Source of the DNA: an uncultured Alphaproteobacteria bacterium
Lineage (GTDB): Bacteria > Pseudomonadota > Alphaproteobacteria > Rs-D84
DNA length: 64,000 nucleotides
Assembly (NCBI GenBank): GCA_934276735.1
Contig: CAKQTG010000001.1
Coordinates: 224,455-288,454 of the forward strand
Reading direction: 5' to 3'
Below, in pieces: positions 8,024-64,000 of this stretch (the stretch's first letter is position 1; the number at the start of each line of letters is the position of its first letter). The notes below the pieces were generated by a model. The model searched no databases and had not been told where the DNA came from. It saw only the letters and a list, made by a program, of their open reading frames with translations. The translations under genes were made by a program, and so were the position numbers.

Positions 8024-8052
8024 CAAAAAACGGGGCGTTTGCCCCGTTTTTA
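8024..8052. terminator. bidirectional Rho-independent terminator (tsaE / ftsA-rpe convergent)
   Basis: aaaaaacggggc-gttt-gccccgttttt. The stop codon of the minus-strand gene lies in the T-run. Confidence 0.7.
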
Positions 8053-9819
8053 TCGCTTTAATAAACTCTGAACTGCCAGGGGAAAATCCGGACTGCGTGC
8101 CAAATATGAGCCGCTGACCAATAAATCTGCGCCGGCGTCCCAGCACATTTGTGCTGTTTTATCATTTATTCCACCATCTACTGAAATTATAAATTTCAGT
8201 CCGTATTTTTTACGTGTTGCGGCCAAAACAGAAATCTTTTTCAGGCAATCTGTTTGGAATTCTTGGCCGGCGGCACCTGGGGCGACGGTCATAACCATAA
8301 CTTCGTCCACATCACGCAGAATTGGCTTTAATATCGCAGGTGATGATTCTGGGTTCAGGGCAACGCCTGCACGACGCCCTGCCGCGTGAACGCTGGCAAT
8401 AGCCGCACGCAGACCAGACGTATTTGTTGACATGATAACCGTGTCGGCACCGGCGGCAACACTGTCGGTGGCCCAGACGGACGGACTCTCGGTCATCAGG
8501 TGTACGTGCAGGTGTGCGTCAGTGTGGGCACGTATCATCTTTAATTCTGGAATACCACCCGCCACGCGGTCAACATAGAATCCGTCCATAATATCAACGT
8601 GTATCATTGATATTCCGCCCGCACGAAACATTGAATATGTTGATGCACGACGCATATTAAAACACAGTGTGCTGGGCATAATTGGAATAAAACGACGGCG
8701 GTGTGCTGGGCGTTTGCGGAACAGTTTTGTTATAAAAGCAATGCGACGCTGTATACGATCACGACGCGCCAGGTACGCGCCACGATGAGTCGCCTCGGCA
8801 TTCCAGACGTGCGCACATGCCGCCCGAACAATTGCGTCATTGGAAATATATTCGGTCGGAATTGAAAATGTGTTTTCAATGAACTCGGTCGCCCCCTCGG
8901 CCAGTGCGCCACCACCGGTCAATATAATCTTGGTTGGGCGATATTTGATAATCGCGTCATGAGCCGCAGTCGTTATTTCGGCGGTAATATCAACGCATGC
9001 TGGCATAAATATATCGATGACATCGCCACGTGAAAATTCGTATGCGGTATCGGCGGGGGTAAATCTATCCATTTCTTTGGGGATAAAACTGGCTACTGCA
9101 CGCTTTATCCGTTCAGCGTCATCAAAACCTATGTGCAATTTTGCAGAAATGTCGTTTGTTATTTTTGTTCCACCCAGTGGAATTTTATAGTGCCAGACTG
9201 GGCCACGGTCGGTCCAAATGGACGCTGATGAAAATTCCCCGCCCAGGTCAATGAACATGACTGTTTGTTTCTTTTGTCGCAATGTTGTATTCAGTAAAAA
9301 TTGCGGGTCATAAAATGCACAGGGTGTGATATGGGCGCGACGCAGAAAACCCAATACTTCGTTCAATCGCGATTTCGTATAAAATATTGCGCCAAACGCC
9401 GATATCAGCTGTCGGTCGGTATAGCCAATTGGACTAATCATATTGCGTGCGGTTGGCGTATCGTATCGCAGTGGCACGATATGCATTGGAAAGTATCCGT
9501 CAGGCGCGTTTATCTGGGCAATCTGGGCACGGACATCGGCAGTTGTGATTTTGTGTTCGCCGCCCCAAGCGGTGCTTTTTGCAGTCATTTCAAAAATAGA
9601 CGTGCCAAAATTCCCCGTGATATATGCGGTGTCAAAACTGGTTCCGATTTGATGTTCCAGATCGTCAATTACATACCGCAGTGCAAACACGGTATCAAAA
9701 CAATCCGATGTTGAAATTGCAGATTTTACAATCTTGGCCCCACGGACACGGTGTGCCATTCCGCGCACACCGGTCGATCCAATGTCCAGACATAAAAAAG
9801 CCGAATCAAACAGGTTCAT
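8050..9819 (-). CDS. ftsA: FtsA (actin-like cell-division ATPase) fused in frame to ribulose-phosphate 3-epimerase (Rpe); single 589-aa ORF
   Basis: N-terminal ~370 aa carry the FtsA motifs LCLDIGSTGVRG, FIDLGGEFSSASIW and ILTGGGALAEG, plus a C-terminal amphipathic segment IAFITKLFRKRPAHRRRF. Translation continues without a stop into a complete Rpe barrel (HVDIMDGFYV ... ISVDGGINDKT ... LLVSGSYL). Confidence 0.7.
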   Translation of the reverse strand: MNLFDSAFLCLDIGSTGVRGMAHRVRGAKIVKSAISTSDCFDTVFALRYVIDDLEHQIGTSFDTAYITGNFGTSIFEMTAKSTAWGGEHKITTADVRAQIAQINAPDGYFPMHIVPLRYDTPTARNMISPIGYTDRQLISAFGAIFYTKSRLNEVLGFLRRAHITPCAFYDPQFLLNTTLRQKKQTVMFIDLGGEFSSASIWTDRGPVWHYKIPLGGTKITNDISAKLHIGFDDAERIKRAVASFIPKEMDRFTPADTAYEFSRGDVIDIFMPACVDITAEITTAAHDAIIKYRPTKIILTGGGALAEGATEFIENTFSIPTEYISNDAIVRAACAHVWNAEATHRGAYLARRDRIQRRIAFITKLFRKRPAHRRRFIPIMPSTLCFNMRRASTYSMFRAGGISMIHVDIMDGFYVDRVAGGIPELKMIRAHTDAHLHVHLMTESPSVWATDSVAAGADTVIMSTNTSGLRAAIASVHAAGRRAGVALNPESSPAILKPILRDVDEVMVMTVAPGAAGQEFQTDCLKKISVLAATRKKYGLKFIISVDGGINDKTAQMCWDAGADLLVSGSYLARSPDFPLAVQSLLKR

Positions 9820-11352: not shown

Positions 11353-12723
11353 GTGGCAAAGGAGATGTGGCGGATGAAAACAATGAAAAAAATATTTGGT
11401 GGGGCCATGGCAATAACGCTGGTGGTGGCGTTGCTGGCGGCGTGCACCCAGAAAAATGCCGCGACCGATATGCCCCAGTATGATACGGTGACGGTTGTAG
11501 ATAACCTGGTCATTGATGAAAATTCGGTGCCGATTTTCCCGAAAAAGGCGGCACTGACCACAGATACAGCACGTCGCTTTTCCCTGGATTTGCCAAAGCG
11601 GTGCGAGGTAAATTGGGATAACCAGGCGGTTGTTTCCGTTGTTCCCGAAGAAAAAATTGAAATTATTCGTCTGAATACCGGTGACGCGTTGCCAGAATTA
11701 CAGGTGTCGGACTATGAATTCAAGAAATTGACGGTAAAACGTGCATTGGATAAATTGCTGGACGGAACAGATATATCGGTCATAGAAGACGAAGAAATGA
11801 TTGAAACTGTATCTGGCTCAATCAATTCTGGTAAATTGTCTGATGCGGTTGAACTGATGGCCAAGATGGGGCGTGCGTATTATTCCTATGATGCCGACGC
11901 CGGCGAAATTCATTTGACGCATCGTGCAAAATGGTTGGTAAAAATGCCACACGACCAATCTATTATTATGGCGTTGATTGACGCAATGCGTGGCGCAGAT
12001 GTGCGAAATCTGTTGGTGGACTGGAACGACAAGACGTTGGTGTTTGAAGGAAATTACCAGACCGAGCGCGAGGTTTCCAGAATCATTGCTGATGTCGCGT
12101 CCAAGAAATATATGCTGGCGTGGGACATTGATGTGTATCGCGTGTACCCACGCACAGACAATCCGATTGTTTGGATGAATATGTTGCCGGCATTTGGGGA
12201 CAAAAATATTAAAATGTCTATCCCAGGCGTGGTGGGGCGTGCGCTGGTTGTGGGACCGGAAATTAATACCAAGACGTTGCAAGAATTCTTGTCGCAACAG
12301 GCAAACGTAGTTTTGATATCCCAGGGTCAGTTTGTAATTCCAAACGGTTGGCAATCGCGTTTTGATATCGGGCAATGCAGCAAGGAAGAACGCCTGGAAA
12401 CAGATTTGATTATTGGTGCAACGGGCAAGTATGGCGATTTTGGCGGCCGTGATAAAATTGATGCGAAAATCGTTTTGCGAACCAGTAATGGCGAATTGTC
12501 ATCGTTTAACATTCCGTCAAGCATTGGTGATAACTATGTGATTATCGGTATTCCGACGCATTCGTTCGTGACAACACCTGAAACGCTGATATCACCGTTT
12601 GCAGAATTAGTTGTGTTTATGTCACCGCGTGTGATTTCCATTGTTGATGCACACGCTGCACCAAGTGGCGCGTCTGCGCCACTGGTTGGTGACGCATTAC
12701 GTAAATTTTTACGCCAAGAATAA
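11353..12723 (+). CDS. secretin-like outer-membrane lipoprotein (lipobox LLAAC; start may be 11386)
   Basis: Lipoprotein signal MKKIFGGAMAITLVVALLAACTQ. The C-terminal third resembles the secretin domain (VVLISQGQFVIPNGWQSRFDIG ... DNYVIIGIP ... AELVVFMSPRVI, cf. secretin terminus ELLIFITPRIV) but lacks the canonical GGL/PxLGxIPxLGxLF segment. Confidence 0.5.
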   Translation: MAKEMWRMKTMKKIFGGAMAITLVVALLAACTQKNAATDMPQYDTVTVVDNLVIDENSVPIFPKKAALTTDTARRFSLDLPKRCEVNWDNQAVVSVVPEEKIEIIRLNTGDALPELQVSDYEFKKLTVKRALDKLLDGTDISVIEDEEMIETVSGSINSGKLSDAVELMAKMGRAYYSYDADAGEIHLTHRAKWLVKMPHDQSIIMALIDAMRGADVRNLLVDWNDKTLVFEGNYQTEREVSRIIADVASKKYMLAWDIDVYRVYPRTDNPIVWMNMLPAFGDKNIKMSIPGVVGRALVVGPEINTKTLQEFLSQQANVVLISQGQFVIPNGWQSRFDIGQCSKEERLETDLIIGATGKYGDFGGRDKIDAKIVLRTSNGELSSFNIPSSIGDNYVIIGIPTHSFVTTPETLISPFAELVVFMSPRVISIVDAHAAPSGASAPLVGDALRKFLRQE

Positions 12724-12742: not shown

Positions 12743-13999
12743 ATGTTATTTTCAAGACTAGAAAGAAAAATCGCATTCAGATACCTGGCCGCAAAAAAGC
12801 GCGGATTCGGTTCTGTTATTTCATGGGTGTCGCTGATTGGCATTACGCTGGGGGTTGCAACACTGATTGTTGTTATGTCAGTTATGGGCGGATTTCACGA
12901 AACGTTGTTATCGCGTATTGTTGGTATGAACGGTCACGTTGTTGTTTATCATCAGGACGGCGCAATCAGTGATTTTGATTATCTGATTGATAAAATGAAA
13001 CAGAACAAGGTTGTGTCAGCAAATGCAACTGGTATCGTTCCTATTGCCGAGGGGCAGGTTATGGCCACTGCCGGTGGTAATAATACAGGGGCGATGGTGC
13101 GCGGAATTCGTATGACAGACCTGACTGCCAAGACCCAGGCAGGAACAAAAATTTATGGCAAGAAATTATCCGAAATCCGTGATGGTGAATTGATTGCGGG
13201 GGCGTCACTGGCGCGCAGTCTGCGTATCGGTATGGGGGACAAGGTATCGTTGGTATCTGCCAATGGGGCGACGCCAACACCATTTGGTTCAATGCCACGC
13301 ATAATGTCATATCCGGTTATGTCATCGTTCTTTATGGGTATGTATGAATATGATTCTGGATATATATTTATGCCACTGGAAACCGCCCAGAAATATTTAA
13401 ACATCGGTAATGCCGTAACGCATATTGATTTGTTCCTGCGCAATCCCGAAGATACGACCGCCGTGCGCGATGCGTTGGTGCGTCTGTTGCCAGATGGTTT
13501 TGTCGTGCGTGATTGGCGCGAATTAAATCGTGGCTTTGTCGGTGCGTTACAGGTTGAATCAAATGTGATGTTCTTGATTTTAATGCTGATTGTCATTGTG
13601 GCAGCATTTAATATTGTGTCGTCGTTGGTAATGCTGGTCAAGGACAAGAACAAGGATATAGCCGTCCTGCGCACGTTTGGGGTATCGCGTAAATCGATGA
13701 TGAAAATATTTATTTTGTCTGGCACCAGTATCGGTGTTATTGGCGCGTTCTTTGGCACGGTGTTGGGTGTTATTGTCGCGATTTATATCGAGCCTATACG
13801 CCAGTTTTTCCAGTGGGCAACGGGGCGCGACCTGTTTCCGGCAGAATTGTATTATCTGTCTGAACTGCCATCTAAATTGGTGCCGGGGACTGTGATTGGG
13901 ATTGCGGTGCTGGCGATTGCATTGGCGTTTCTGGCGACAATTTATCCGGCATGGAAGGCTGCATCAACCGACCCGGTCGATGTGCTGCGAAATGAATAA
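12743..13999 (+). CDS. lolC: lipoprotein-releasing ABC transporter permease LolC/LolE (single-permease type)
   Basis: MLFSRLERKIAFRYLAAKKRGFGSVISWVSLIGITLGVATLIVVMSVMGGF is the LolC/E N-terminus; FtsX-like C-terminal TM bundle. Confidence 0.85.
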   Translation: MLFSRLERKIAFRYLAAKKRGFGSVISWVSLIGITLGVATLIVVMSVMGGFHETLLSRIVGMNGHVVVYHQDGAISDFDYLIDKMKQNKVVSANATGIVPIAEGQVMATAGGNNTGAMVRGIRMTDLTAKTQAGTKIYGKKLSEIRDGELIAGASLARSLRIGMGDKVSLVSANGATPTPFGSMPRIMSYPVMSSFFMGMYEYDSGYIFMPLETAQKYLNIGNAVTHIDLFLRNPEDTTAVRDALVRLLPDGFVVRDWRELNRGFVGALQVESNVMFLILMLIVIVAAFNIVSSLVMLVKDKNKDIAVLRTFGVSRKSMMKIFILSGTSIGVIGAFFGTVLGVIVAIYIEPIRQFFQWATGRDLFPAELYYLSELPSKLVPGTVIGIAVLAIALAFLATIYPAWKAASTDPVDVLRNE

Positions 14000-14018
14000 T
14001 GGTGTGGGGGCAAATCAT

Positions 14019-14729
14019 ATGGCAAATATTTTAAATTCTTTATCGCGTGTGAAAAAAGGTGACGTTGTCCTGTCTGTGCGCGATATTAAAAAGACATTTA
14101 TCGAAGGTGGACAGCCCTTGCACATTTTGCGCGGTGGCGGTTTTGATTTGCACCGTGGTGAAATTATCGCATTGGTTGGACAATCGGGATCTGGAAAATC
14201 TACGCTGTTACAGTGCGTCGGATTGTTGGATAAACCCACCAGTGGCAGCATTTTGCTGGACGGGGCGGCAACGAACCGCATGGACGAAGACACTCGCACA
14301 ATGATGCGTCGTAACAAAATCGGATTTGTGTACCAGCGGCATAATCTGTTATCTGATTTTACGGCATTAGAAAATGTTGTTTTACCAATGTTGGCGGCGG
14401 GCACAGACGAAATCACGGCAAACGGCCGCGCGATGAAATTATTACAATTGGCCAGTGTTGCACATCGTGCATCGCACCTGCCCGGGGAAATGTCCGGGGG
14501 CGAGCAGCAGCGCACCGCGGTTGCGCGTGCGTTGGCCAATAATCCGGAAATTTTACTGGCCGACGAACCGACTGGCAGTTTGGATCCAGCACATGCAACT
14601 GCGGTGTTTGATTTGCTGTTGGAATTGGTGCGCAAGAATAAAATGGCAATGTTATTTGTGACACACGATATGAATCTGGCCGCACGTGCCGACCGAACAA
14701 TCACAATTCGTGATGGAATTGTAAAGTAA
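14019..14729 (+). CDS. lolD: lipoprotein-releasing ABC transporter ATP-binding protein LolD (alternative overlapping start at 13992)
   Basis: Walker A GQSGSGKST, ABC signature LSGGEQQRTAVARAL, Walker B LLADEPTGSLD. Confidence 0.85.
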   Translation: MANILNSLSRVKKGDVVLSVRDIKKTFIEGGQPLHILRGGGFDLHRGEIIALVGQSGSGKSTLLQCVGLLDKPTSGSILLDGAATNRMDEDTRTMMRRNKIGFVYQRHNLLSDFTALENVVLPMLAAGTDEITANGRAMKLLQLASVAHRASHLPGEMSGGEQQRTAVARALANNPEILLADEPTGSLDPAHATAVFDLLLELVRKNKMAMLFVTHDMNLAARADRTITIRDGIVK

Positions 14730-14758
14730 TAACCAGAGCAACCAAGAGGAGAGAGCCC

Positions 14759-15610
14759 ATGAAAAAAATATCAACCACAAAATATGAAACCACCGTCCCC
14801 ACATCGCGCAAGGTTTGGGGTGTGCTGGCACTGGCCGGGTTATTTACATGCGGTGTATTTATCGGAACAACATTGAATAATAATCGCACGCCTGATACAG
14901 AATTTTCCGATGACGCATGTCGCGAATTGGCGGATAAAATTGCCGGCGAAACAGACGAGGCCACATTAGAACAACTGGGTGAAACATATTCCGAACATTG
15001 CACTGTGGACGCATCAGATCAGAATACAACCAGCCTGTCACGGTGCCAGTGGTTCGAGAAAATACTTTCTGCGCGCTTGTGTCCAGACGATAATCTGATG
15101 AATGATAGCTATTGCCTTAAACAAAATATTGATATTTATAAAAAATTGGTGACATACGGTTGCCCAGAAAATCGTGATAAATATGTTGAAATGGCGAGTA
15201 ATCAAGACACCTTATTGAATGCTGTGTTTGGTGAATACAACTTTGTAACCAAGGAAGTTTCAACATGTGAACGTATTGAACAATTGTTGAAGGGAAGATT
15301 GAACCCAAAAGATGTTGATAACTTTAATTATCATTTGGAAAATGCGGAAATCTATGCACGTCTGGCAGAACGTGGATGCCCAGAAAACGCCGATAAATAT
15401 CGTGCATTGGCCGCCAGTGAAATAGAAATCACAACGGCATTACAACCGGTTGAAGCTATGTCTGATATTGACGTGGCAGAGGTTGTTGATGTCTATAAAA
15501 AGGTGAAAATGCAGGCCGCCGCGCAACAGGTAATTGATACCCTGCAAAAGGTTTCTGAACCAACCATAGATTTTATTTTGAAACTGGAAAAAATTGTAAA
15601 TGAAGAATAG
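14759..15610 (+). CDS. membrane-anchored periplasmic repeat protein, hypothetical (283 aa)
   Basis: aggaga RBS; N-terminal signal-anchor WGVLALAGLFTCGVFIGTTL; internal repeats YKKLVTYGCPENRDKYVEMA and YARLAERGCPENADKYRALA. Confidence 0.55.
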   Translation: MKKISTTKYETTVPTSRKVWGVLALAGLFTCGVFIGTTLNNNRTPDTEFSDDACRELADKIAGETDEATLEQLGETYSEHCTVDASDQNTTSLSRCQWFEKILSARLCPDDNLMNDSYCLKQNIDIYKKLVTYGCPENRDKYVEMASNQDTLLNAVFGEYNFVTKEVSTCERIEQLLKGRLNPKDVDNFNYHLENAEIYARLAERGCPENADKYRALAASEIEITTALQPVEAMSDIDVAEVVDVYKKVKMQAAAQQVIDTLQKVSEPTIDFILKLEKIVNEE

Positions 15611-15620
15611 GGGGCGCGTT

Positions 15621-16265
15621 ATGAAACGTTTGTTTGTTGCGATTTCGGCACTGGTGTGTGTTGGGTGGACGGCGGCGCATGCGGCTGATGTTGCACCGCG
15701 TATGTCGTGCGCAGATATTAAAACCCAGATGGATACATTGTTCGCGCGTGATGATTTAACCGATGATGAATCAAAACAATTGACCGATATGCGCACAAAG
15801 TATCGTCGTGATTGTGTTAAACGTGCGGCGGGTGGTCGTGGTGCGCAAACTATTGCGGCCGCACGCGCACCGGTTGCAACCGATGATGCGAAAAATTCGG
15901 ACGCCGCCGCGGCCACACCTGGCGCACCATGTGATACCCCGGACGAACATGGTTGCTGTCCGGGTGAAACGTATACCGATATGGGTGACCAGGGATTTAA
16001 TTGTTGCCCGTCTGATGGCGGCATGTGCTTTACGCCAATGGTGCTGAAATCGGTTGAAAATACCGAAGTTCAAGACGATGCACCTGTCAAGACAGACGAA
16101 GAAATCGCGGCGGAAATAAATGCGAATATTGCGGCAGGTCTGTGCGCCGATGGCACCAAGCCGAATAAGTATGGTTGTTGTGCCGATGAATTGTTCCGCG
16201 ATATGGGCGGAACGTTCGCGTGCTGTCCAAAAACGGGCGGTGACTGTTTCCCGCCGATGAATTAA
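15621..16265 (+). CDS. secreted cysteine-rich tandem-repeat protein, hypothetical
   Basis: Signal peptide MKRLFVAISALVCVGWTAAHA. Two copies of the module GCCPGETYTDMGDQGFNCCPSDGGMCFTPM / GCCADELFRDMGGTFACCPKTGGDCFPPM. Confidence 0.55.
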   Translation: MKRLFVAISALVCVGWTAAHAADVAPRMSCADIKTQMDTLFARDDLTDDESKQLTDMRTKYRRDCVKRAAGGRGAQTIAAARAPVATDDAKNSDAAAATPGAPCDTPDEHGCCPGETYTDMGDQGFNCCPSDGGMCFTPMVLKSVENTEVQDDAPVKTDEEIAAEINANIAAGLCADGTKPNKYGCCADELFRDMGGTFACCPKTGGDCFPPMN

Positions 16266-16282
16266 GATAATGGGAAGTTGAA

Positions 16283-17902
16283 ATGAAAAAAATAACATTT
16301 ATAACAAGTGCATTATTGCTTTCGGCATGTGGTGGTGGAAGTGGCACCGGCACAATTGACAATCCTGGGGCAGATGTTGTTGTCCCAGAATACGCAGATT
16401 TTTTGACAACAAGTTTGGCTGAGACCCAGGATAATTCAGTTGAGCTGAACACGTATGTTGAGTCCGTTTTGGGCTCGGATGGTGAAGTTGTGTCAGAATC
16501 AACCGGGAGACGGTCTGGCACCCGAAAAGTTAAAAATCATCATCACGATGCTCAATATAATAGCAAGCAACTTGATGACATGAAAGATTTTTTTGATAAA
16601 GATGATGAGTATAAAAAAGAATTTATATCAAGAAATCGTGATTTGGTGAAACGGTATGCCAAACTTGCATGTGGTTGTGATATGAAGGATTTTGATTTTG
16701 ATGGAAGATCAGATGATGACGTTTTTCATCATTTAAAGAGTGATGCTTTTAGACCCAATGAAGTGTGGAAAAAATATCACTATCGTCAGGAACAACTGGC
16801 AAACCAGAAATTATATTCTGGCAGTGGTAGCCGTGATTGGGGTAATGGGTATGTAAAAATCACAAAGTTGCAAAATGGAAAAATAGCGAATATAAAGTTG
16901 TATGACGATTGGTATGAGCGCGAATTTAATTTTGATAAAGGCTCAGACAATAAATTTTACGCGACACCTTATTCTTATGCTATTCTATGTGGTGCAGGCT
17001 GTATTATTCAATATAACACAGACAATACAAACGAGAGTTTTGAAAGCATTAAGGCCGGATTGCAATACACGTTGGATTCATTCGTGTATCCGCTTACAGA
17101 GGAACAAAGACAGATAGCACAGGACGCTATTGATTCATTAACATCTGAAACTGCACCAATAATATTAAGTCAAACAGAAATGGAAGGTGGTTCGTATACG
17201 TCTGGTTTCTTTAAGATACCAAATCATTTTGCGGTGGATGTTCGTGCCTATGGCAAGCAGGTTGGGTTGCAATATGCTGATTTTGGTTCTGTCGTTGGTA
17301 GTCAATGGCTTGATGGAAAACGGAGCGAAACAGATAATGGCATTGGATATGTGTTCGCGGGTGGTTATGGTATAAAAAACATAAATAAACAAAATATCCA
17401 AGGTAGTATGAATTTCAAGGGGCAGGCTGTCGGTCATGTTATGTACCATGAAGAAAATGCAAATGGGGTTGCCACTGATGATTATATGTTTGTTAAATCA
17501 AACGCAAATTTGACATTCCAGGCCGATGGTACAGAAAAATTGTTTATGAATTTTTCTGACAATGCCGATGTAAACAAAAGGTGGTACGATGTTGAATATA
17601 CGAAAAAGGGTGATGACGTTAGCGTAACACTATCAAATGGCGACAGGATTGCCGCAGAAAATGCAAAATATAAGTTCAAAGATACTGAATATAGTGGAAA
17701 ATTTACACAAGAAATTGTTGATGAAAAGTATAATCGAATGATCTCGTGTGATTTTGATTCAAAATATTATGGCGATAATGAAAAACCGTCAGAAGCAACA
17801 GGTGTTGTAAACTTACTTGATCAAACGTGGGCCAAAGATAGTGCTGAAGATAAAGAATTATTTTTTACGGCGGCGTTTGGGGCTAAAAAAGATAAACGGT
17901 AG
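16283..17902 (+). CDS. surface lipoprotein, TbpB/fHbp-like C-terminal beta-barrel family (539 aa)
   Basis: Lipobox LLLSAC followed by a GGGSGTG linker. C-terminus ...LFFTAAFGAKKDKR matches the conserved FGAK ending of TbpB_B_D/lipoprotein_5 barrels. Clearly more AT-rich codon usage than flanking genes. Confidence 0.6.
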   Translation: MKKITFITSALLLSACGGGSGTGTIDNPGADVVVPEYADFLTTSLAETQDNSVELNTYVESVLGSDGEVVSESTGRRSGTRKVKNHHHDAQYNSKQLDDMKDFFDKDDEYKKEFISRNRDLVKRYAKLACGCDMKDFDFDGRSDDDVFHHLKSDAFRPNEVWKKYHYRQEQLANQKLYSGSGSRDWGNGYVKITKLQNGKIANIKLYDDWYEREFNFDKGSDNKFYATPYSYAILCGAGCIIQYNTDNTNESFESIKAGLQYTLDSFVYPLTEEQRQIAQDAIDSLTSETAPIILSQTEMEGGSYTSGFFKIPNHFAVDVRAYGKQVGLQYADFGSVVGSQWLDGKRSETDNGIGYVFAGGYGIKNINKQNIQGSMNFKGQAVGHVMYHEENANGVATDDYMFVKSNANLTFQADGTEKLFMNFSDNADVNKRWYDVEYTKKGDDVSVTLSNGDRIAAENAKYKFKDTEYSGKFTQEIVDEKYNRMISCDFDSKYYGDNEKPSEATGVVNLLDQTWAKDSAEDKELFFTAAFGAKKDKR

Positions 17903-17919
17903 GGCGAGTAATAAAGGGC

Positions 17920-17947
17920 TTGCGTTTTAGGAAAATTGATTTATAAT
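17920..17947 (+). promoter_or_regulatory. sigma70-like promoter for the tRNA-Gly/tRNA-Tyr pair
   Basis: TTGCGT (17920-17925), 16 nt spacer, TATAAT (17942-17947), about 20 nt upstream of tRNA-Gly. Confidence 0.45.
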
Positions 17948-17967
17948 AGGCAGGCTTTCAATTTGTT

Positions 17968-18042
17968 GCGGGCATAGTACAAAGGCTAGTATGCAAGCCT
18001 TCCAAGCTTGAAATGCGGGTTCGATTCCCGCTGCCCGCACCA
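17968..18042 (+). tRNA. tRNA-Gly (anticodon TCC), CCA encoded
   Basis: Manual cloverleaf: acceptor gcgggca/tgcccgc, D-stem gtac/gtat, anticodon stem caagc/gcttg with loop cttCCAa (anticodon UCC), T-arm gcggg-ttcgatt-cccgc, discriminator A, CCA. Confidence 0.85.
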
Positions 18043-18049
18043 AGAGATT

Positions 18050-18136
18050 GGGCGTGCGCCGGAGTTGGAGAGCCGGGGCAGACTGTAAATCTGTTGGCTT
18101 AAGCCTGAGCTGGTTCGAATCCAGCCACTCCCACCA
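18050..18136 (+). tRNA. tRNA-Tyr (anticodon GTA), class II long variable arm, CCA encoded
   Basis: Manual fold: D-stem ccgg/ccgg, anticodon stem gcaga/tctgt with loop ctGTAaa, variable arm tggcttaagcctga, T-arm gctgg-ttcgaat-ccagc. Acceptor gggcgtg/cactccc has one C4:U69 mismatch. Confidence 0.78.
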
Positions 18137-18139
18137 AAA

Positions 18140-18175
18140 TAAAACCACCCACGAACGTGGGTGGTTTTGTTTTGG
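18140..18175 (+). terminator. Rho-independent terminator after tRNA-Tyr
   Basis: Perfect stem ccacccacg/cgtgggtgg followed by ttttgttttgg. Confidence 0.75.
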
Positions 18176-18359
18176 CGAAATGTGGTATTGGATTTGAATC
18201 ACGCAATCATTTGATTGCCGGTTTGACTATGAGTTGTTGTGTGACGCGGTGCGCGTGGCACACAACATACGAATGCACCGCAGTCCCACGCCACCAGCGT
18301 GGGCGAGGGAAGCAGCCACACAGCAAGTTACATGCGAGTATTCTGTTATGTATGTCAAA

Positions 18360-18394
18360 AATAAAAACACCCGCGTGCCGGGTGGTTTTATTTT
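18360..18394. terminator. bidirectional terminator at the 3' end of lpoA-like gene
   Basis: A-run, hairpin cacccg-cgtgc-cgggtg, T-run ttttatttt; contains the lpoA stop codon. Confidence 0.6.
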
Positions 18395-61749: not shown

Positions 61750-62124
61750 TTGATAAATAACGATAAAAATTCTGACTTTACATTGGCGGTCGCCAATCTG
61801 GCGGCGGCGGCGATTGCGGCGAATCCGGGGTTGACGATGACGGCGGCGGTTGCGGCGGCGCGTGAAACATTGCGCGGGGCGTCGGCAACACCGGCCCAGA
61901 TTGCGGCATCGGTCCGACCGGATAAAATTCAATGTCTGGAAGATGGCACCTGGCACATAATGCTGCGCCGGTATATTCGTCGCAAATTTAATATGACACC
62001 GGACGCGTATCGTGAAAAGTGGGGACTGCCGGCGGACTATCCATTTGTTGCGCCGAACTATGCATTACATCGGTCCAAGATTGCCAAGAAATCAGGCCTG
62101 GGAAAAACAAAGCGGGGAAAATAA
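61750..62124 (+). CDS. MucR/Ros-family transcriptional regulator-like protein (zinc ligands partly substituted)
   Basis: C-terminal FNMTPDAYREKWGLPADYPFVAPNYALHRSKIAKKSGLG matches the Ros/MucR conserved tail; CLED in place of the CxxC. Confidence 0.6.
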   Translation: MINNDKNSDFTLAVANLAAAAIAANPGLTMTAAVAAARETLRGASATPAQIAASVRPDKIQCLEDGTWHIMLRRYIRRKFNMTPDAYREKWGLPADYPFVAPNYALHRSKIAKKSGLGKTKRGK

Positions 62125-62126
62125 AA

Positions 62127-63990
62127 ATGTCTGAAAAATTTAGAAAGGTTGTAAATGCACCGCATCGCGCGATGGGCGAACTGAACAAGAAAATTGCCCA
62201 ATCAGATGTGAATACATTTGTGCGCGCCACCGGAATGACAGTGACGGCATTGTTTCAATTCTTGTTGTGGGCGACGAAATACGCGACGCTGGACAACCAT
62301 CTGTTGCGCGCGATGGAACGCAGAAATGCGAACAAGAAAATTGCAAAAAACAAAAACGGGGAAAATAAAAAGATGTCTGAATTTTCAAAAAAATATCCAA
62401 ATTTATCGGCGCATTTATTGTATTACCTGATGTTTGCAATGACACTGGGTGGCGTCAAGACGGCGCGTGATAACATGAATAGCGTTGCCCATGTCGAGCC
62501 CCAAGAAATTCATATTGCACAGCCCGTCACGCGCGCACAACCAAATACGTATGGCGCGTATCTGGAGCGTATGCGTCCAATTACGCCTTTTTTGATTGCA
62601 GATTTGCTGGCCAAAGAAGGGGTCAAGGTTGATGAAAAAACAGGTCTGCATATCCCATACAAGGACAGCCGTGGTGTTTGGACGATTGGATTTGGGTCGA
62701 CAATGTTGTCTGATGGTACCAGGGTGACCAAGGATACCAAACCAATCACAACGCAACAGGCATATGATTTGGCAAAGTGGCACCTGGAACACGGCGAAAC
62801 ATATTTTACAATGTATTGTTATGATGTTGCGATGGGTGGTGTCAACATCAACACCACGACCGAGGCACTGGCCATGGCGTCGGTTATATATAATGCCGGG
62901 ACCAAGGTTATCGAGAATCCGCGTGACAGAAGCCATCGCGAACGTTTCGAACTGTTACGTCAAGATTTTAAAAAGTATGGAACAAATATGCCAGACAGCC
63001 TGGTGCGCCAGCGTTTTGCAGAACACCCGATAGTGGCAGAAACCAGTCTGGGGCGCGCGTGGTTGCATGGCAAAAGCCCCAAGGTTGTTGCGGGTCGTAT
63101 TGGAAATTTCCTGGCGGGTGGGGCGGGCCTGCGTTGGCGTCGCTGGTTAGAGGCGGGGGTGTTGACCGGGGACGTGACGCCCGAAATGTTGATGAATTGC
63201 CCGATGGGCGGAATGCCTGAATTCTATTATCTGGTTGGTGGTGACAAGGCAAAGTTTTTTACCGGTGACGAAGAGCATCGCACGGTAAATCGCCAGCTGT
63301 TCAAGGAATGGCATAAATGGTTAAAAAATCCTGTCAATCGCCATGGAAACTCTATGGCCAATGCGCCCAAGGTCAAGGATTTCTTGCCCCAAGATGTTCA
63401 GTTGCTGTGCCAGAACAATAAATGCGAATTGGGGACGGATATAAATATGTATGCCCAACAACAGGCCCCTCGCGAAACAAATCCTGCGCCGGTTATGCGT
63501 GATGCCGCGCCAGCACCGGTAAATTATGATGACATGCGCGCCAGTGCAGACGCCGCATACAGAAATGGTAATTACCAGGACGCATCCCAGAAATATTTGT
63601 CATTGATTGAAGCGTCACCAAATGATGCAAGTCTGCGTAACGATATTGCCGCGACATATAATAAAATGGCACAGTATGATATGGCGATATCACAATCGCG
63701 CGATGTGATAACACGTATCAAGGATAAACGGCAATTTGGTGCCGCGTATTACAACGCTGGGTTTGCCTATGAACAAAAGGGCGATTTACAGCGGGCGTTG
63801 GCTAACTATAAATTAGCGGTGGTCAATGGCAACAAACGGGTGCAACGTGATGTTACGCGTGTTACACAACTGACCCAGAGAAGAGACGCGGTAAAAAATA
63901 CGCGTGGTAAAAATTTGGCATTTAATTCTGGGGCGGAAAAAGTTAAAAAATCTGCCACCATAAAAATGCGCAATGTGCACGATTTGGCCG
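62127..63990 (+). CDS. GH24 lysozyme-domain protein with C-terminal TPR repeats; 3' end truncated by window; alternative in-frame start at 62373
   Basis: No stop from 62127 to window end. ...LAKEGVKVDEKTGLHIPYKDSRGVWTIGFGST... is the phage-type lysozyme E-D-T catalytic block. C-terminal ...YNKMAQYDMAISQSRDVITRIKDKRQFGAAYYNAGFAYEQKGDLQRALANY is TPR-like. Confidence 0.6.
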
Positions 63991-64000
63991 CACGCGACGA

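Follow-up and report, generated by a model that had tools for sequence, protein, structure and literature searches.

A strain-variable, compositionally foreign gene of a gut alphaproteobacterium encodes a predicted TbpB-like lipoprotein, a putative cargo of Slam

An uncultured gut alphaproteobacterium carries, just ahead of a pair of tRNA genes, an AT-rich gene for a putative lipoprotein, and this locus raises the question of whether the product is exported to the cell surface in the manner of the TbpB- and fHbp-type lipoproteins and how the gene reached its present place. We examined it in a 64,000-nucleotide stretch (assembly GCA_934276735.1, contig CAKQTG010000001.1, positions 224,455 to 288,454 of the forward strand), hereafter the window, and all positions are counted from its first letter. 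The product is referred to as SLP (surface-lipoprotein-type protein). We consider it probable that SLP is a cargo of Slam, the DUF560 protein of type 11 secretion systems (T11SS). Judged from the comparison of strains, its gene appears to be a recently exchanged accessory gene of foreign composition.

The gene occupies 16283..17902 on the plus strand as a complete open reading frame (ORF) of 539 residues. It starts 17 nt past the stop codon of the preceding same-strand gene, orf221, and a Shine–Dalgarno-like GGGAAG lies 6-11 nt 5' of the start. The protein begins with MKKITFITSALLLSAC, continued by GGGSGTG; this start holds a classical lipobox, L-S-A-C (LLLSAC followed by GGGSG), and runs on into a Gly/Ser-rich stretch. 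The C-terminus reads FFTAAFGAKKDKR, with FTAAFGAKKDKR as the final strand and AAFGAKKDKR as the tail. The lipobox, the Gly/Ser linker and the AAFGAKKDKR end, which the original prediction had named as family signatures, were all read in the 539-residue frame.

A word-indexed search of 5.8 billion proteins returned only 15 relatives of SLP, and a Pfam domain was found in none of them. When the profile built from these 15 sequences was used in a full HMMER scan, representatives of 566 clusters (defined at 50% identity) were matched at E<=1e-3 and 217 at E<=1e-30. As homologues are conserved and the family profile reaches this many clusters, we take the ORF to be a genuine gene and no chance reading frame. 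A lipobox is present within the first 40 residues in 142 of 150 family members, and the C-terminal aromatic-Gly (FG) tail in 143 of the 150. The handle and barrel described below carry the family motifs GLxYxDFG, FAGGY, FxGxAxG, WYDV, YYGxNxxPxEAxG and the terminal FG[AGV]K, and SLP of the window keeps every residue that is invariant in the family.

We modelled SLP with AlphaFold2 from a 15-sequence alignment and obtained a mean pLDDT (predicted local distance difference test) of 74, with values mostly of 80-96 over the C-terminal half. The protein opens with a signal peptide and lipobox (aa 1-16; 16283..16330, this and the following segments on the plus strand), where the putatively lipidated Cys16 and the Gly after it are invariant or nearly so in the family. 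A Gly/Ser-rich tether follows (aa 17-91; 16331..16555), which is predicted to be disordered (pLDDT <50 over residues 1-91), and then an N-terminal 'effector' region (aa 92-305; 16556..17197) made of five helices, a seven-strand beta unit and two to three helices. The beta strands of a handle, or 'pedestal' (aa 306-365; 17198..17377), carry GLxYxDFG and FAGGY, and they lead into a beta-barrel domain at the C-terminus (aa 366-539; 17378..17899) that ends in FGAKKDKR and would be the Slam-targeting domain.

From structural comparisons of the model with solved proteins, we observed the highest score for the C-lobe of TbpB (5kkx_B; 13.1 over 182 aligned residues), followed by full TbpBs (11.7-12.8), the C-terminal barrel of NHBA (12.1; 136 residues, 2.6 A), the N-lobe of LbpB (11.5), fHbp (11.4), the hemophilins (10.6-11.0), PmSLP-1/fIbp (10.2-10.7) and HpuA (10.4). 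The identity within these structural alignments was only 11-15%. As the alignments span 160-214 residues, both the handle sheet and the barrel are matched, beyond what a generic barrel would give. Foldseek was weakly concordant (fHbp, NHBA). The effector region, aa 92-305, had no structural relative or counterpart in the PDB, the hemophilin clamp included. A TbpB-like handle together with an eight-stranded barrel is therefore present in the predicted model and can be superposed on the solved members, and the C-terminal half of SLP is predicted to have a TbpB/fHbp-type fold.

The relatives of SLP place this fold in an unfamiliar host. In a scan of one genome per species, based on a 7-sequence alignment, only two loci with an SLP relative were found. 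One (L003) is a metagenome-assembled genome (MAG) from the Hadza gut, named 'uncultured Alphaproteobacteria bacterium', with a syntenic orthologue of 80% protein identity. The other (L004) is a MAG of Candidatus Enterousia sp. with a homologue of 44% identity; the closest non-syntenic relatives of SLP are just 44-47% identical. Rs-D84, the order that includes Ca. Enterousia, consists of uncultured gut bacteria with genomes mostly <1 Mb (PMC12306168). The host is an uncultured human-gut alphaproteobacterium, a distant relative of Ca. Enterousia. The scan for SLP relatives and the placement of Ca. Enterousia in Rs-D84 put it outside the Neisseriaceae, Pasteurellaceae and Moraxellaceae, the three families to which the original prediction had tied such lipoproteins, and that tie does not extend to this host. 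Over 7.6 kb, the window is matched at 100% identity by a scaffold from a metagenome (ERZ28614899 scaffold_5).

The link of the family to Slam comes from the genes beside the homologues. In the Ca. Enterousia sp. MAG, the 44%-identical homologue is followed, 3 nt further on, by a gene with PF04575 SlipAM (8.9e-35) and PF24575 TPR_Slam, and this Slam gene is followed by a second paralogue of the SLP family. The SLP–Slam arrangement recurs in independent metagenome contigs carrying the homologues P0007 (L005, L006), P0010 (L007, L008) and P0012 (L013), and in L010 (P0002) two SLP paralogues precede Slam. For P0007, P0010, P0002 and P0012, Slam is adjacent or one gene away, and there are often two paralogues per Slam. 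From hidden Markov model (HMM) scans of all fetched loci, Slam was found in four of eight distinct locus types (L004/5/6, L007/8, L010 and L013). In the Ca. Enterousia-type contigs (L004 7015-14603, L005, L006, L013), the SLP–Slam–SLP cassettes adjoin serine-recombinase (resolvase) genes, and in L004 a protein of 627 aa also has a weak phage-integrase match that stays below the threshold; this suggests that the cassettes are mobile.

In the clade of the host, Slam homologues form at least 578 clusters (90% identity; E<=1e-5), several of which NCBI names 'surface lipoprotein assembly modifier [Alphaproteobacteria bacterium]'. The longest contig is 745,082 bp for each of a Slam homologue with SlipAM and TPR_Slam (P0306), the SLP that is identical to that of the window (P0355) and the LppC that is identical to that of the window (P0378), an agreement in size only. 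From this shared value we infer that an unlinked Slam is probably encoded in the window's own genome. Among ten Slam clusters, none matched the 530,952- or 267,027-bp contigs of the SLP allele P0001. In Neisseria, fHbp, TbpB and LbpB are reportedly served by a non-adjacent Slam1; by analogy, an unlinked cargo would be normal for Slam. The Slam adjacency of four in eight SLP-family locus types resembles the proportion in a wider survey, where only ~52% of Slams had an adjacent lipoprotein gene (Hooda et al., PMC5449769).

The gene itself varies between strains. BLAST breakpoints and junction sequences delimit a strain-variable segment of 1,644 bp (16266..17909), which comprises the ribosome-binding site, the ORF and 7 bp. 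In two SLP-negative strains with the common LppC allele P0380 (L019 and L021), 11 bp (ACACAGTTCGC) stand in place of this segment between flanks that are 95.7% identical to those of the window, so that the orf221 orthologue directly abuts tRNA-Gly; the gene tables of L019-L021 list no 539-aa gene between this orthologue and the tRNAs. Where the gene is present, it is much better conserved than its surroundings. SLP of L001 is 99.1% identical to that of the window, whereas lolC, lolD and LppC are 91-95% identical. Over 16301-18100, L001 and the window differ at 14 positions in total, 11 of them inside an 80-bp patch, 16520-16600. With L017, SLP shows zero differences and the flanks are ~93% identical. 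Near-identity of SLP between diverged flanks is the signature expected of the recent recombinational spread of one allele. The same SLP protein sequence was found on 40 contigs. In the same organisms, the LolD and LppC clusters are represented on far more contigs than the SLP cluster is, which is suggestive only, as the breadth of the clusters differs. Hadza samples are prominent among the sources of assemblies with LolD/LppC of this species. The patch 16520-16600 covers aa 80-106 at the boundary of tether and effector, brings four amino-acid changes and has the appearance of a small tract of mosaicism or gene conversion.

The composition of the gene sets it apart as well. Its GC content is 0.377, whereas the mean of the 60 window ORFs is 0.467 (standard deviation, sd, 0.036), and its GC at third codon positions (GC3) is 0.300 against a mean of 0.468 (sd 0.057), ~2.9 sd below the mean and the lowest of the 60. 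GC1 and GC2 are likewise low, and 17001-18000 is the 1-kb bin of the window poorest in GC. In SLP's own lineage (window, L001, L003), GC3 is ~0.30 versus 0.46-0.48 in the flanks; homologues in lower-GC relatives have a GC3 of 0.34-0.35, within ~1 sd of their own flanks. SLP of the window therefore looks to have been derived from a lower-GC relative. The syntenic copy of L003 lies at the same site with 76% nucleotide identity, between flanks that are ~79% identical, and has a GC3 of 0.31. From a syntenic copy at this distance, it follows that the locus is old and that the gene has been both lost and re-spread within it. The AT-rich codon usage claimed by the original prediction is thus borne out by a clear GC3 outlier, and the probable horizontal acquisition that it proposed agrees with the presence/absence polymorphism and the near-identity of SLP across strains with diverged flanks.

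Several results weigh against reading SLP as a TbpB-type cargo of Slam. The fold is taken from a predicted model and not from a solved structure. Searches of Pfam, with PF01298 and PF08794 included, gave no meaningful match to SLP even at E<=1, and NCBIfam gave nothing relevant for SLP or 97 relatives; its 'invert_tail' matches were discarded, as the alignment was confined to the signal peptide. Neither PF01298 nor PF08794 was among the 25 of 46 families listed for the 97 relatives (E<=0.1), where at most one member could match. The SLP-family profile matched no surface-lipoprotein-type protein among all PDB sequences at E<=10, and hhalign of the 97-sequence profile with fHbp (a query identical to PDB 7ket_C) gave a probability of 0.4%, which is not significant. 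As regards export, no Slam was found in the available flanks of the other four of the eight locus types (the window type, L011, L012 and L014). Within the 64 kb of the window, a bona fide Slam as the query of tblastn gave chance matches only, and the best match of the Slam HMM to all six-frame ORFs had an E of 0.006 (10 bits). The putative Slam of the same genome is joined to SLP only by the equal 745,082-bp contig sizes. No TonB-dependent receptor and no metal or haem gene was found by Pfam among the scanned neighbours in the window or in the gene tables of related loci. Finally, the L003 orthologue carries a single TGG-to-TAG nonsense change (L003 10520-10540), which turns the Trp of GSRDW in the window into a stop (GSRD*) and marks either a pseudogene or a population variant; from this premature stop and the many strains that lack the gene, SLP would be dispensable.

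The TbpB_B_D/lipoprotein_5 barrel of the original prediction accordingly stands as a predicted fold and falls as a sequence-family membership, the PF01298 search that it proposed having given no match. Its statement that no Slam gene is adjacent holds for the whole 64-kb window, which also contains no SLP paralogue. It had further held that the lack of an HMM match together with an ordinary GC3 would speak against it; the HMM match is lacking, and GC3 is a clear outlier, so the two were not found together. Since the fold fits and membership in Pfam and NCBIfam families fails, we file SLP, on the strength of the model, as an unannotated addition to the known class of TbpB-like handle-plus-barrel Slam/T11SS cargo.

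Other explanations bear on either the export or the history of SLP. As the counterpart of Slam cargo, SLP could be an ordinary outer-membrane lipoprotein facing the periplasm, which shares a small soluble beta-barrel fold and undergoes neither Slam translocation nor surface exposure; we hold this to be quite improbable. For the history, the low GC and GC3 may be intrinsic to this class of genes, through a Lys/Asn/Asp/Tyr-rich composition, weak codon selection or fast evolution, the gene being inherited vertically and deleted from some strains. The equally low GC3 of the syntenic L003 orthologue in its ~79% flanks would fit such a history, as would the low GC1 and GC2, the position 5' of the tRNAs with no surrounding integrase or att repeats in the window, and the observation that in L004 and L007 the SLP genes are AT-richer than the neighbouring Slam genes. 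However, SLP lies 2.9 sd below the ORF mean in its own lineage, whereas lower-GC homologues stay within ~1 sd of their flanks, and vertical descent fails to account for two independent pairs of strains in which SLP is 99-100% identical beside flanking core genes of 91-95%. The SLP gene is also exactly what the breakpoints delimit, and related Slam–SLP cassettes adjoin resolvase genes. Vertical inheritance is thus unlikely, and recent exchange of SLP is the history that we prefer.

SLP could also be a remnant without function that is decaying and being lost from the genome, with which the nonsense codon of the L003 orthologue, the absence of SLP from many strains and the aberrant codon usage would agree. 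We consider this highly improbable, as the frame of 539 codons is unbroken, one and the same protein stands on 40 contigs, SLP is 99-100% identical in strains whose flanks have diverged, the ribosome-binding site is good, all family-invariant residues are kept and the model is confident. The function may also be sought in the scavenging of haem or metal, with SLP acting like a lipidated hemophilin or HpuA and feeding an outer-membrane transporter; the scores of the hemophilins and HpuA in the structural comparison were given above. NEAT and nitrophorin matches fell far under their thresholds, no conserved His/Tyr ligand pair was identified, the effector region shows no likeness to the hemophilin clamp, and near none of the eight loci was there a TonB-dependent receptor, haem oxygenase or metal-uptake gene. 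Such a scavenger is improbable. No Plug or TonB_dep_Rec domain was found among the scanned window neighbours or in the Pfam-annotated tables of related loci, and with no TonB-dependent receptor or haem/metal gene at any locus, a bipartite receptor of the TbpA/TbpB type is unlikely too. SLP may have a hemophilin-like role or act as an adhesin or in immune evasion.

As a cargo of Slam, SLP would be made with a Sec signal peptide that is cut at the lipobox, and Cys16 would be acylated. The Lol system, of which lolC/lolD-like genes lie just upstream, may then carry it to the outer membrane, where an unlinked Slam outer-membrane protein would recognise the C-terminal TbpB-type barrel and flip SLP to the cell surface. 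Tethered there by ~75 disordered residues, SLP could meet a ligand of host, partner or nutrient origin with its N-terminal effector domain, which is specific to the family. The SLP gene is an accessory gene of some strains, one allele of which may have spread recently by recombination at the orf221/tRNA-Gly junction.

The genes upstream of SLP form a co-oriented, closely packed array on the plus strand (12743..16265), consisting of a LolC/E-like permease (12743-13999; Pfam FtsX/MacB_PCD), a LolD-like ATPase (14019-14729; Pfam ABC_tran) and the two Pfam-less genes orf283 (14759-15610) and orf221 (15600-16265). The intergenic gaps up to SLP include 29, -11 and 17 nt, and a terminator scan found none convincing between the LolC/E-like gene, the LolD-like gene, orf283, orf221 and SLP. 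These five genes probably make one transcription unit. The product of orf283 shows a hydrophobic anchor at its N-terminus and, internally, the repeat YGCPENxDKY (DNA repeat D1); that of orf221 combines a signal peptide with two repeats rich in Cys, CCxxExxxDMGxxFxCCPxxGGxCFxPM (DNA repeat D2). Between strains, the DNA identity of orf283/orf221 is 56% and 86-90%, whereas the core flanks are at 91-96%. Just 5' of the lolC/E-like gene, the ORF 11353-12723 encodes a predicted lipoprotein of 456 aa (…LVVALLAAC, then TQKN), with no Pfam match at E<=0.05; it is conserved in L003 and stands outside the SLP family. This Pfam-less ORF was considered as a Slam candidate and set aside as another lipoprotein.

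Downstream of SLP, as the original prediction had noted, lie two tRNA genes on the same strand, tRNA-Gly(tcc) at 17968-18042 and tRNA-Tyr(gta) at 18050-18136, both found by ARAGORN and Rfam. A strong bidirectional terminator-like hairpin (~18134..18175; terminator scan, inverted repeat I2, direct repeat D3) closes the SLP–tRNA unit, and a second, similar hairpin stands at 18358-18394 (terminator scan, repeats). From tRNA-Tyr to LppC, the sequence is hypervariable between strains. In the window (18137-18392), a 222-bp remnant is left between the two hairpins (18136-18172 and 18358-18394), L017 (4760-7620) has an integrase and a DUF5906 gene directly past tRNA-Tyr, L019-L021 have an island of ~5 kb with radical-SAM, Peptidase_S51 and DUF488 genes (L019 8790-14400), and L001 (4879-5620) has a DUF488 gene. 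In L017 and L019, an insert of ~113-120 bp with a duplicated 3' end of tRNA-Gly separates the two tRNAs, and L019 also has a partial repeat of the tRNA-Tyr 3' end. From these sequences, the tRNA-Gly/Tyr pair appears to be an integration hotspot of the species.

Is SLP then itself a tRNA-integrated island? In such an island the gene lies between a tRNA 3' end and a repeat of that end, along with an integrase, and SLP does not have this form; it lies 5' of tRNA-Gly, and in the window no integrase, tRNA-derived repeat or convincing att-like or direct repeat flanks it. We therefore rejected tRNA-targeted integration as the mechanism; it is more likely that SLP is exchanged when its conserved flanks undergo homologous recombination.

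The remainder of the window is a housekeeping stretch, with genes for AspRS, an AsmA-like protein, UvrB, the LolC/E-like and LolD-like proteins, an LppC/LpoA-like protein, RsmI, EngB, an AddB-like nuclease and FtsK. A long ORF on the plus strand (62016-64000), which runs off the end of the window, has a phage-lysozyme domain followed by TPR repeats; the ORFs 62415-62936 and 62968-63252 on the opposite strand are probably spurious. The marginal match of the Slam HMM lies here, at 62016-63998 on the right edge of the window, and was dismissed, as Pfam shows a protein with lysozyme and TPR domains. On the minus strand, 8050-9819 is an ORF of 589 aa that joins an FtsA/PilM-like actin fold (aa ~182-326) to a ribulose-phosphate 3-epimerase (aa 382-573); either the fusion is an uncommon one or the ORF has been called too long.

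Compared with the Neisseria lipoproteins TbpB (C-lobe), LbpB, HpuA, fHbp and NHBA (PF01298, PF08794), SLP is thus only 11-15% identical where the structures align. It belongs to a gut alphaproteobacterium and has a helical-plus-beta N-terminal region unlike any in the PDB. TbpB is bilobed, whereas SLP has a single lobe, and in contrast to the TbpA/TbpB pair no gene for a partner TonB-dependent receptor lies beside it. The haemophores hemophilin and HphA (Haemophilus, Acinetobacter, Vibrio) carry a haem clamp and are, for the most part, secreted in soluble form; SLP is putatively lipidated, ~300 residues longer, unrelated in its N-terminal region and without haem-uptake genes nearby. PmSLP-1/fIbp of Pasteurella multocida has no detectable sequence similarity to SLP, comes from a different host and niche and differs also in that SLP is not Slam-adjacent in its own genome.

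The closest match in overall plan is the layout of T11SS cargo given by Grossman et al. (doi 10.1101/2024.09.26.615229 / PMC12282271). In the parts of that work available to us, a disordered region comes first, followed by a variable N-terminal effector, a beta-strand pedestal and a C-terminal eight-stranded barrel, and SLP would share this order of tether, effector, pedestal and barrel. The same parts associate cluster 1 T11SS with mobile genetic islands; here, a comparable association would be seen in the resolvase-flanked cassettes and the tRNA hotspot. Their cargo search, as described there, was made among genes that co-occur with T11SS and took BLASTp matches (E<=0.05) to the domains of cargo already known. 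As SLP is not T11SS-adjacent and has no curated-model or profile similarity to known cargo, a search of this type would probably miss it, and those parts of the text contain no mention of a gut lineage of the Rs-D84 type.

The mechanism class itself is already known; what these results add is its setting. The best-known Slam/T11SS cargo come from Neisseria, Haemophilus, Moraxella, Pasteurella and Acinetobacter, where they are vaccine antigens and serve as factors in nutrition or immune evasion. SLP places the same export logic in uncultured gut Alphaproteobacteria, probably of small genome, where the cargo family is large, diverse and unannotated. Surveys based on Pfam or BLASTp probably miss such cargo, and fold together with gene context recovers it. 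More speculatively, and with considerable doubt, SLP may be the tip of a large, hyperdiverse family of T11SS cargo, missed by curated models, that serves as the main surface toolkit of Rs-D84/Ca. Enterousia-type bacteria, and its allele may have swept through human-gut strains by binding a specific host or partner ligand. The presence/absence polymorphism and the near-identical allele mark SLP as a locus on which selection has acted recently in the human gut, and they make it a practical entry point to the question of what serves these uncultured bacteria as food or as a point of attachment.

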